Source: a virus
Lineage: Duplodnaviria; Heunggongvirae; Uroviricota; Caudoviricetes
DNA: 64,000 bases
Virus record (IMG/VR): IMGVR_UViG_2703718822_000010
Direction: 5' to 3' (one strand)
Positions 54,001 through 64,000 of this stretch are shown here, piece by piece. A program made the position numbers. How positions within the stretch are numbered: position 1 is the first letter of the stretch; each line of letters opens with the position of its first letter.

Positions 54001-57000
54001 GGATGGCTTCATGGTGTTCAGGATAGCGGTCTGACTGCCACAGTTTTCATCATCGTGTTTAAACCAACATTGCAATTCACATTCTGACCCTGCTCCGGCA
54101 GGTTTTTTTTATTATCCAGGGGGCCATTATGGGTGGAAGTAAAGGTGGTGGTGATACCAAAGTAAAACCAACAGCAGCGCAAATAGCACAGGAAGAAGTG
54201 GCCTGGAAAGGGTGGCAGGATTACAAAAATATCCTCCGCCCGGCTGAAGATAACTTCATGGAAAAGGTCGATGACCTGAACAGTGAGCAGCAGTACGACA
54301 ATATTGCTGGCACCACAAATCTGGGGTATCAAAAACAGTTTGGCGAAGCGCGGAAGGAGCTGGCAAGTAATCTCACTCGGTCCGGTGTTGACCCGTCCAG
54401 TGGTCGCTTTAACGCGGTAATGAATGCGAACCAGAGTGATCAGGTAACCGGGCAGATTGACACAACCACACGGGGGCAGGTATCGCAGGCAGATAAGTAT
54501 GTTGCCGGGCTACAGGATGTTGCTGCTCTCGGTTCTGGTCAGAAGGCGGATGCGTTACAGAGTTTTAACTCTCTGGCAGACAGCAGTCTGGCAAAAGCTA
54601 AATCGGATGCACAGGCGGCGTTTACGAAACAGCAGGGGCGAGCCTCTCTTGTTGGCGCTGGTCTGGGTGCGGCAGGTGCATATGCGATGCATAAGGCTGG
54701 CGGTAGCGGAGGAAGTGGCGGTGCTAAAACACCTGGCACTGGCGCTAATGCCATTCAGCATCAGGCTCAGAACTGGAGACTGTGATTATGGAGTACGGTA
54801 AATACGAAACACGTGCGAGATACGGTTATACCGGAGCAGCCCGCCCTCAGGGGGACTGGCAGACATCCGCAGCGCTGACCCGCCAGCAATACGACGACTG
54901 GCGCACCAGATATTTACCCCGTGTAGCAAGGCTGGCTGACCTTGGGGAGAACAACAGTCTGATGAATCCACAGCTTGCACGGGTGGGAGGCCTTGCCACT
55001 TCCAGTCTCCGTACAGCGCAGATGGCGCAGGATAACCAGATGGCGAGATACGGGGTAAGCCGCCCGGATAATCCCGACAGTAATACGCTGGGGTTACGTA
55101 ATGCCCTGGCAATAGCAGGTGCGAAAAATGGTATCCGTGAAGCCGAACAGGATCGCCAGATGAATATTCTGACGGGGGCTTCTGCACCGGCAAGACAGAA
55201 ACTGAGTGTTGGCGGACAACTGGTGGCAGCGTAAGGGGGCAATATGGGATACGGTTTACTGGATATTGCAAATCAGTCGCGGCGTGAGGCATTACAGGGA
55301 ATAAGTGACGCAGACAGACGACGTACAGAGATTGAGGCATCAAATAAACAACTGGCTGCTCAACAGAAAGCTCAGAAAAAACAGAATATCGGTACGGGCA
55401 TTGGTACGGGGGCCACTATCGGGGCGACTGTTGGTTCAGCAGTACCGGTAGTGGGGACAGCCGTCGGCGCTGTTGCTGGTGCAGTAATTGGCGGCATTGC
55501 AGGCGCTTTGTTTTAAGGAGTGGTGAATGAGCGGATTTGCACAGGGGTTACTTGCCGGATTCAGCACTGTTGACCAGGCAATGACCCGTCGTAAGGAGCT
55601 TGGTTTGCGAGAAGCACAGCTTGCTCAGCAACAGAAAAATAACGAGCGCGATTTTGAATTTGCGCAGTCTCAGTTTGAACATAATAAAGACGTTGATCAG
55701 CGGAACTTTGATTACAGAGCCAAAGTTGATGACCGCAATTACACACTGCAGGAAAGGGAGTTTAACGCCAACCAGAATTACCGGAATGCGTCGCTGGGGA
55801 TGGAACAGCAACGACTCCAGTTGCAGAAATACAACCAGCGACGGCTTGAGTATAACGATATGCTGGCGCGCGATCAGCCTGTGATGGCGGCGCTGGGAAA
55901 AGCGATTGATGCGGGTGACCATGATGCGGCTTCTCATCTGTTCGGTAAATTATCGGACGCCAATCCGCTTAAGATGATGTCAACGGTAGGCTATGCTGCG
56001 AAAGCGGGTCAGGCCGTGAACAACCTGCAGAAAATCTTTGATGATAAGCCGGACAGGGCGATTGCTTCGCTGAATACCCCGGAAAATCTCGATGTGCTTT
56101 CCGGCGTGTTTGCCCCGGAACTACAACAGCGTATTGGCATGCCTGATTCAACCGGGGAAAAAACGATAAAAGAGGCCAGGATTGGCAGTATCGTACCGGC
56201 GCAGCAGGAAGGGTACGTACTTATTGGCCTTGATCTCACATACAGCGATGGCTCCACCGCGCATAAACCTGTAACAGAATACGGCAGTGCGCACCCTGAT
56301 GATCAAACCGTGCTGGCGATACCCGTTGATAAGGCTATCGCTCAGGTCAGGGATCGCAGCAAATTTGCAGAGATATCGAAAAATTATGGTTATTTTATGC
56401 CGAAGCAGCAGGGACTTTCTCTGAAAGAGCTTCAGAAGGGGGCCAGCAACGTAGCGGCGGACGCGATCAAGAATGGCGGTAATGCTCAGGCTGCGGTGGA
56501 TGAATATTATGCTGCGACTGGTTCACAACCGCATCAACAGAAAATTCAGCAACAAAAACTTCAGCAACAGGTTATCAACTGGGCGGGAGATGATCCTGAT
56601 AAGCTGTCATTTGCCAGAAATGTAGCGGCCCGTCAGCCTGAAATGCTGGAACCTCAGAATCAGAAATTGCTGGAGAACGGGTATGCGAATTTTCTCCGTA
56701 TTCAAAAGGCCAGGGGGGAACAGGCCAGAGATGAAAGTGCTTCATCTGCATCTCAGTTTATCCGTGGACTGAAACAGAATTACGCCCAGTAATTCACGAT
56801 ATTCCATTAATACCATTTCCTGATGCCCGGCCATTGTGCCGGGTTTTTTTATGGAGTCTGTATGGCCTATTCAGAGGAACAGCGTCCTGAGGCGCAACTC
56901 GGTAACCAGAATCGTAACAGCCTGAACATTCAGCAACCCGGCGAAACTGACAGCTATGAAGCATTTTTCTCTGATCCGAATCGCTGGAAGGATAACAGTA

Positions 57001-63000: not shown

Positions 63001-64000
63001 TGGTGGATGCCTGGCAGAACGCCTACCGTTACTACGTTCCCTTGAAAGGGCAGGATGTTGACGGTGTGGTGTCACTGCCCCGTACAGGTAAGGGCTTCAC
63101 CATCGGTGGGCGTGAAAGTAAGCAGGCCATGGGGCGTGCATCCCGCGCACAGTCTCCGTCCACTCAGGCGATACAGGACTTGAGCGAATCGCTGATCCGC
63201 AGTCGCAAAAATGAAGTGGGTAACGCCTTCCTGAAGCTGGTGCAGGATAATCCCGATAAGGATTACTGGCAGGTATTCACTGATGACAGACCGGATACCA
63301 TGCGTGTGATTGCAGAGCGCAAGGACCAGGAAACTGGTGAAACCATTCGCGAAGTTGTCGAGCGTCCGGTGGCGATGGCAATGATGGCAGACCGGTACTT
63401 CACCACCAAAAAGAACGGCAAAACGTACTACATCAAACTCCATGATCCGCGCCTGATGCGTGCGATGAAGAATATGGGACCGGAAACCAGTAACGCAGTA
63501 ATCCGTACGCTGGGGAAAGTTAACCGCTTCCTGGCAACGGTGAACACGTCGTATAACCCGGAATTCCTGGTCAGTAACTTCATCCGTGATGTGCAGACAG
63601 CGGTGATGAATCTGAAGGCGGAGCAGGGAAGGAGCGACGGCAAACTGAAAGGGCTGGATAACTTATCCGCACTGGCTGTGGTGAAAGACAGCCGTTCTGC
63701 TATGTCAGCCGTATACGCCAGTCTGCGTGGCAAAAACCTCACGGGCAAAGGTGCGCAGTGGCAGAAGGTGTGGAAAGAGTTTGTTGAGGACGGAGGTAAA
63801 ACCGGCTGGTTTAACATGGGTGACCTTGAAGGCCAGCAGAAGGAAATGGATCGCCTTGTATCGCTGGCGAAGGGAGGATGGAAAGGCCAGAGTATCGGTG
63901 CATGGAATTCGTTCCTTAACCTTGTCGAGGATGCCAACGGGGCGGTTGAAAATGCTCTGCGTCTTTCTGCCTATAAACACGCCCGTGATGCCGGTTTGTC

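Follow-up and report, generated by a model that had tools for sequence, protein, structure and literature searches.

A giant reading frame at the right end of a Shiga-toxin-type prophage encodes a polyvalent virion protein that is probably ejected with an enzymatic central cargo

A giant open reading frame (ORF) closes the window analysed here, a stretch of 64,000 nucleotides from the virus record IMGVR_UViG_2703718822_000010 (Caudoviricetes). We found that this frame is the 5′ 85% of a late gene found in all short-tailed Shiga toxin (Stx)-converting phages (Sepvirinae). The orthologous proteins are late, abundant in virions over their whole length, located outside the ordered capsid and tail, and needed for infection but not for DNA packaging. 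The best explanation, to which we give a probability of about 0.8, is that the gene encodes an internal, ejected polyvalent virion protein with an enzymatic central cargo. The gene is not new: it has already been described through genetics (2016), domain classification (2017, and a RefSeq name) and virion proteomics (2026), and the finding in the window is a re-finding. What the analysis adds is a cleaner domain map, with two zincin modules, the placement of LPD1, MuF-C as a predicted ribonuclease (RNase)-like domain, and terminal modules around a variable centre; this map supplies precise residues for mutation. The spread of Shiga toxin genes in E. coli depends in part on short-tailed Stx phages, and the giant gene makes up ~13% of their genome and is essential for infection.

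A single intact gene of short-tailed Stx phages

Translation of the plus strand from position 56862 to the window end, which cuts the frame, gave 2,379 codons without a stop, bearing out the first-pass annotation, which had reported a stop-free frame of at least that length. The frame starts with an ATG at 56862, with GGAG 5 bases upstream, and the nearest in-frame stop on its 5′ side lies at 56808. Given the base composition, a frame of this length would lack stops by chance with a probability of ~1e-47, and each of the other five frames over the same stretch contains 37-218 stops. The downstream end was obtained from the closest relative, PQ600364 (phiSTEC1589-Stx1c; 99.9% nucleotide identity), in which the ORF extends 1,246 nt further to a stop. 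The full-length protein of that phage has 2,794 amino acids (aa) and differs by 1 residue from the part in the window, which holds the first 2,379 of the 2,794 codons. Older records show small opposite-strand ORFs inside the giant gene or split it into many pieces, and might be taken to mean that there is no single gene here, only a sequencing artefact, a decayed prophage gene or a non-coding frame. This possibility is already refuted and retains next to no weight, given that independent genomes keep all 8.4 kb of the frame free of stops, that peptides of the phi24B orthologue lie along the whole length with most of their signal in the top gel slices, and that chance would so rarely produce such a frame.

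A megablast search with the giant ORF returned 186 phage records, each with at least 90% identity and complete coverage of the query. Every one is an Stx-converting short-tailed phage of E. coli or Shigella, and the best is phiSTEC1589-Stx1c at 99.9%. The orthologues Sp5 ORF80 (ECs1242, E. coli O157:H7 Sakai), phi24B gp47 (vb_24B_48) and PA2 gp48 (YP_009180966, named 'LPD5 domain-containing protein' in RefSeq) are 97-98% identical to the window protein, have the same length (2,793-2,794 aa) and occupy the same place at the right end of the prophage, behind the same set of four small genes. Against phi24B vb_24B_44 to 48, the window proteins show 100, 98, 82, 93 and 97.7% aa identity, in that order, the last value being that of the giant protein. 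VT2-Sakai has the same gene order, and the giant gene is the last of the morphogenesis block in the Sepvirinae prophage. Only the cut at the window end and a Mu-like interruption of the tail-fibre gene, described below, distinguish this prophage from these orthologues.

Domain map of the giant protein

LPD5, LPD1, MuF_C and LPD38 all matched far over their Pfam cut-offs in one polypeptide, together with two zincin-like modules (Table 1). The polyvalent-protein reading of the first-pass annotation thus stands, and the gene product, a multi-domain giant encoded in a virion-gene neighbourhood, belongs to the class defined together with the LPD families by Iyer, Burroughs, Anand, de Souza and Aravind in 2017 (PMC5512222). 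It resembles the proteins of that study in its giant multi-domain build among virion genes, its zincin metallopeptidase hubs, its LPD5, LPD1 and LPD38 domains and its MuF-C (PBECR) domain. Unlike those proteins, it has no nucleic-acid-modifying domain detectable with Pfam: searches of the full-length protein against Pfam and NCBIfam gave no N6-adenine methyltransferase or DExH helicase domain, and no methylase, helicase, ART or ParB domain was among its domain matches. PADLOC gave no match, and neither the full protein nor a 37-sequence profile retrieved anything in PDB sequence searches. An AAA+ ATPase (COG1483) hint given in 2016 for Sp5 ORF80 was not reproduced with Pfam or NCBIfam.

Along the polypeptide, the conserved N-terminal module precedes a glycine-zipper-like stretch at aa 406-433, with weak Gly-zipper matches, and then a compositionally biased region (aa ~441-1040) in which no domain was recognised and no Pfam family matched. 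Structure prediction modelled LPD5 as a beta-rich domain with flanking helices. The MuF_C match (E 1e-17, 64.6 bits versus a 27.6-bit cut-off) covers the domain that Iyer et al. equated with the PBECR predicted RNase domain (PMC5512222). Among 122 copies, H1752 and S1816 are 99% conserved; their assignment to the catalytic pair is by position only. Judged by sequence, MuF-C is a predicted RNase-like domain, not a metallopeptidase as the wording of the phi24B preprint suggests (bioRxiv 10.64898/2026.04.10.717836). LPD38 (aa 2477-2682; E 3e-48 in the full-length relative) and a coiled-coil tail fall past the window end. The structure model of the C-terminal module was of low confidence, and its fold match was uninformative.

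Table 1. Positions of the giant ORF, its domains and neighbouring features in the window
Feature	Position	Strand	Basis or remark
Giant ORF, Stx-phage polyvalent virion protein gene	56862-64000	+	Translation, relatives; PHROG 616 match 1-2378 of 2793
Conserved N-terminal module, Ala/Gly-rich (aa 161-408)	57342-58085	+	29% identity with giant ORF of ~60-kb Vibrio phages
Ala/Glu/Arg/Pro/Gly-rich region (aa ~441-1040)	58182-59981	+	Composition
LPD5 domain (aa 1051-1200)	60012-60461	+	Pfam PF18799, E 5e-45
Zincin-like metallopeptidase domain 1 (aa ~1182-1440), predicted	60405-61181	+	Includes HEWFH and Pfam LPD1 stretch aa 1361-1440
Zincin-like metallopeptidase domain 2 (aa ~1500-1640), HExxxH type, predicted	61359-61781	+	Conserved motif RHEIIHH
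MuF_C domain (aa 1750-1839), predicted barnase/EndoU/colicin-type (PBECR) RNase-like fold	62109-62378	+	Pfam PF18819
Conserved C-terminal module start (aa ~1880 onward)	62499-64000	+	Colinear matches in other phages
218-aa Gly/Ala/Gln-rich virion protein = phi24B vb_24B_44 ('gp51' in preprint)	54129-54785	+	ORF, identity
150-aa protein = phi24B vb_24B_45 ('gp50')	54782-55234	+	ORF; 148 aa if start is ATG 54788
90-aa protein with C-terminal glycine-zipper hydrophobic segment = phi24B vb_24B_46	55244-55516	+	ORF
421-aa protein = phi24B vb_24B_47 ('gp48') = Sp5 ORF79/ECs1241	55527-56792	+	ORF
Terminator-like GC hairpin, then T7 run	56825-56851	+	Just 5′ of giant ORF ribosome-binding site
GC-rich hairpin, then T-run	54089-54110	+	Immediately 5′ of 218-aa gene
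Mu-like prophage, 39,311 bp	5329-44639 (junctions 5328/5329, 44639/44640)		5-bp target duplication at flanks
403-aa YadA/Eib-like trimeric autotransporter gene	52334-53545	+	YadA_anchor E 1e-11, YadA head repeat, weak EibD structure match

Two zincin-like modules

The translation contains the peptide GPGALAHEWFHSLDNYFGRYD, cited in the first-pass annotation for its HExxH motif; HEWFH occupies residues 1284-1288 (nt 60711-60725). H1284, E1285 and H1288 do not vary among 37 sequences and fall within a predicted helix (model residues 243-263). His1263 and Asp1291 are also invariant, which makes the motif type HExxH..D with an upstream His, and the invariant E1375 and E1382, placed in a helix by the structure model, are candidates for the third metal ligand. 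The model has a zincin core, a small beta-sheet packed on the active-site helices; together with the invariant motif residues, it supports the predicted peptidase-like fold behind the HExxH. Pfam 'LPD1' is the C-terminal half of this first module.

A second motif, HEIIH(H), which the first-pass annotation had not mentioned, lies at residue 1551 (nt 61512; RHEIIHH at nt 61509-61529). Scanning aa 1441-1850 against 1.84 billion cluster representatives gave 1,727 matches, mostly to proteins of 2,000-4,600 aa. In 66 domain copies from giant homologues among the matches listed, H1551, E1552, the second His and E1607 were 100% conserved and E1614 was 94% conserved. The usual form, LRHE(I/V/L)xxH(H/Y)GL, is the HExxxH variant of the metallopeptidase noted by Iyer et al., and the Stx protein carries both motif variants of that study (PMC5512222). 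Profile-profile comparison put the His-strand and motif helix of the second module in register with those of the first, weakly (probability 34%, E 4e-4). The second motif appears to mark a distinct, zincin-like module.

The closest folds to module 1 were MtfA (M90), anthrax lethal factor, the Pro-Pro endopeptidases (M34) and the M13/M4/M27 families, all protein endopeptidases. Sequence identity to lethal factor, MtfA and Pro-Pro endopeptidase was 9-15%, with no sequence match to any PDB chain and no Foldseek match. Module 1 differs from these enzymes in its extra invariant His1263 and Asp1291 and in being embedded in a 300-kDa protein, where it is a predicted peptidase.

These folds bear on the view, put forward for phi24B, that the giant is ejected and uses its metallopeptidase to digest peptidoglycan, making way for a trans-periplasmic conduit to the inner membrane (bioRxiv 10.64898/2026.04.10.717836). 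Short-tailed phages need passage through the cell wall, and with Pfam neither the giant protein nor any of the four proteins encoded upstream showed a lysozyme or transglycosylase domain. However, the nearest folds in the model, protein endopeptidases, speak against peptidoglycan digestion; none of the top fold matches listed was annotated as a cell-wall peptidase, and the preprint assigns the peptidase to 'MuF-C', the predicted RNase-like domain. We consider this form of the ejection hypothesis unlikely.

Location in the virion and requirement for infection

Published mass spectrometry of phi24B virions supplies the proteomic check that the first-pass annotation had proposed. In purified virions, gp47, for which LPD5, LPD1, LPD38 and MuF-C domains were listed, gave 10,962 peptide-spectrum matches (PSMs), second to the capsid protein only, and its signal peaked in the uppermost gel slices, above the 81-kDa portal (bioRxiv 10.64898/2026.04.10.717836). 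In the preprint's peptide lists, gp47 peptides span ~aa 116 to 2656 and include the HEWFH peptide. The cryo-EM model was built without gp47, for which the authors proposed an encapsidated ejection protein; they described a diffuse lumen density that is lost on ejection, and regarded the organisation of gp47 in the capsid as an unanswered question (bioRxiv 10.64898/2026.04.10.717836).

Genetic data come from Sp5, whose mutants were constructed, induced and assayed on K-12 MG1655 (Mondal et al.). Deletion of ORF80 left neither plaques nor lysogens and was complemented in trans, with normal DNase-resistant packaged DNA and normal head morphology. The dORF79 mutant (ECs1241, the orthologue of the 421-aa protein) behaved in the same way, without plaques or lysogens and with normal DNA packaging, and deletion of ORF76 strongly lowered infectivity. 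The dORF80 particles did not bind an anti-tail-fibre (ORF67) antibody.

Mondal et al. took ORF80 for a tail-assembly or head-completion factor that attaches the tail and fibres to filled heads, a role that would not involve ejection. The DNA-filled, normally shaped but unlabelled heads fit this proposal, as does the fact that mutants of the nozzle/adaptor type (ORF70 and ORF71) have the same phenotype; given the missing tail-fibre labelling, a role in virion completion may still apply. However, the phi24B tail, adaptor rings and nozzle show no density for gp47 despite the second-highest number of PSMs, the domains are those of polyvalent effector proteins, and the ATPase hint of 2016 was lost on re-examination with Pfam and NCBIfam. 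As a replacement for ejection we find this role improbable; the two may also be compatible, in that an internal portal plug may be needed before the tail binds.

The same mutant bears on whether the giant is purely anti-defence cargo, like P1 DarB, and dispensable for DNA delivery. Related giants of Bcep22-like phages are annotated as 'DarB-like antirestriction protein', and polyvalent proteins were proposed to act at the first moments of invasion (PMC5512222). However, the dORF80 phage is dead on the very K-12 strain that produced it; because production and assay used the same strain, modification-dependent restriction evasion cannot explain the phenotype, and restriction evasion alone is not the function. 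No methyltransferase or helicase domain was found with Pfam or NCBIfam and no match with PADLOC, and the 'DarB-like' similarity is confined to the C-terminal module. That Sp5 ORF80 is essential for infectivity is also not generally expected of counter-defence cargo, and we regard this alternative as very unlikely.

Related giants and proposed mechanism

The C-terminal module is colinear in giant ORFs of Vibrio (44% identity), Ruegeria (36%), Ralstonia GP4-like (29%) and Burkholderia (JC1 gp69, 28%) phages, whereas the N-terminal module (aa 161-408) was found in Vibrio phages only. From the C-terminal colinearity and the N-terminal module common to the Vibrio phages, we infer that the terminal modules are kept in these ~60-kb podophages while the centre varies. 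The giants of Bcep22-like Burkholderia phages (JC1 gp69, 4,515 aa; Bcep22 gp75) and of GP4-like Ralstonia phages likewise follow genes for small virion proteins and close the morphogenesis block; JC1 gp69 is virion-associated and comes after two virion proteins (JC1 paper). These 'DarB-like' giants are virion-associated by mass spectrometry, and their C-terminal module is colinear at 28-29% identity and at the same distance from the C-terminus. Portal, capsid and nozzle are also reported to be homologous between the Stx and the Bcep22-/GP4-like groups (bioRxiv 10.64898/2026.04.10.717836; JC1 paper). The centres differ: DarB-type regions in the Bcep22-/GP4-like giants, and LPD5, two predicted zincins and PBECR in the Stx protein.

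Three better-known types of protein were considered and rejected as homologues. A P1 DarB-type protein would carry the N6-adenine methyltransferase and DExH helicase that were not detected, and the sole 'DarB-like' PHROG match was weak (E 7e-10) and lay in the C-terminal module. No T7-like single-subunit polymerase family was found with Pfam, which speaks against an N4-type virion RNA polymerase (vRNAP). No sequence or fold relation was detected to the ejection proteins gp14/15/16 of T7 or gp7/16/20 of P22. By analogy, the Stx protein may nevertheless resemble T7 gp14/15/16, P22 gp7/16/20 and N4 vRNAP gp50 in being stored in the head and expelled through the tail; as in N4, one very large protein is packaged, although the N4 RNA polymerase domain was not found in it.

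If the protein is ejected, as we favour, it would be housed in the head or the portal-tail lumen, together with the four upstream gene products. Release of the tail needle would let it leave the particle with or before the DNA. The modules at its two ends would have roles in packaging, in exit and in crossing the envelope, and the central cassette (LPD5, the HExxH..D zincin, the HExxxH zincin and MuF-C/PBECR) would be the enzymatic cargo. After delivery, the zincins, as predicted peptidases, would most plausibly cleave either the polyprotein that carries them or proteins of the host; the PBECR domain is predicted to act on RNA. A bolder and distinctly tentative version holds that the giant protein is both indispensable to DNA delivery and an enzyme carrier, on a chassis common to Stx, Vibrio, Ralstonia and Burkholderia podophages, with the cassette cleaving itself off in the new host to act on host proteins or RNAs. 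If this were true, the released cassette would influence the establishment of an Stx phage in a new host.

The four upstream genes

The first-pass annotation had called the small genes before the giant ORF Gly/Ala-rich and likened them to internal virion proteins. The composition holds for the first three, with Gly+Ala contents of 28% (218-aa), 24% (150-aa) and 34% (90-aa protein), but not for the 421-aa protein (19%). All four were detected in phi24B virion preparations, with 1,634 PSMs for the 421-aa, 523 for the 218-aa, 129 for the 150-aa and 13 for the 86/90-aa protein, and none is among the proteins built into the phi24B maps (bioRxiv 10.64898/2026.04.10.717836). An internal location is probable for them. 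The PSMs of the 421-aa orthologue peak in the gel slice adjoining that of the capsid protein, and those of the 150-aa orthologue come mostly from the batch virion sample (bioRxiv 10.64898/2026.04.10.717836).

The 218-aa protein belongs to PHROG 611, weakly matches a PHROG annotated 'virion structural protein', and would by gene order be Sp5 ORF76. The 150-aa protein (PHROG 596) matched no Pfam family. The hydrophobic segment of the 90-aa protein (PHROG 594) spans aa 59-90; its Gly-zipper and bacteriocin_IIc matches are both sub-threshold, and it matches weakly the C-terminal parts of tape-measure and tail-lysin PHROGs. Some records label it 'bacteriocin', and the preprint authors count among the contaminants a 'bacteriocin homolog' that is probably the 90-aa protein (bioRxiv 10.64898/2026.04.10.717836). 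For the 421-aa protein, nothing was found in Pfam, NCBIfam or PDB searches, and PDB searches with the 218-aa protein likewise gave no meaningful match. The label of the 421-aa protein in the preprint supplement, 'Transcription factor?' (bioRxiv 10.64898/2026.04.10.717836), contrasts with its abundance in virion preparations and its essential Sp5 orthologue. In PQ600364, the annotation of features 66-69 looks automatic and wrong, the 218-aa protein being called 'portal protein' and the 90-aa protein 'N4-family major capsid protein'. The hairpin before the giant ORF is also kept in phi24B; terminator-like hairpins in the region are not statistically notable in number (4, versus 3.7 in shuffles).

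The surrounding prophage

A Mu-like prophage interrupts the 784-aa tail-fibre gene of the Stx prophage; the truncated 5′ part of that gene is ORF 4058-5341. The Mu-like element begins with TG and carries a minus-strand repressor-like gene followed by plus-strand ORFs of 696 and 310 aa at the places of Mu transposase A and B, an assignment made by position and size only. The insertion splits the late operon ~12 kb upstream of the giant ORF, and because it sits in the tail-fibre gene, the Stx-type prophage is probably defective and would yield no infectious particles. Similar Mu-like insertions are annotated in LC727881 and LC727895.

The autotransporter gene lies in a 1.6-kb segment that is present in phiSTEC1589-Stx1c, where it is annotated 'terminase large subunit' (PQ600364), and absent from PA2. 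It is probably a lysogenic-conversion (moron) gene for an adhesin or Ig-binding protein. Ahead of the block lie genes at 50168-50785 and 50876-51610 (+), where the annotation of relatives has a membrane-associated protein or 'Rz' and outer-membrane proteins of the Lom/Bor type; PQ600364 has 'endopeptidase Rz' at the Rz position, a label that may belong to the same automatic annotation. The Lom-type protein of phi24B gave a few PSMs in virion preparations (bioRxiv 10.64898/2026.04.10.717836).

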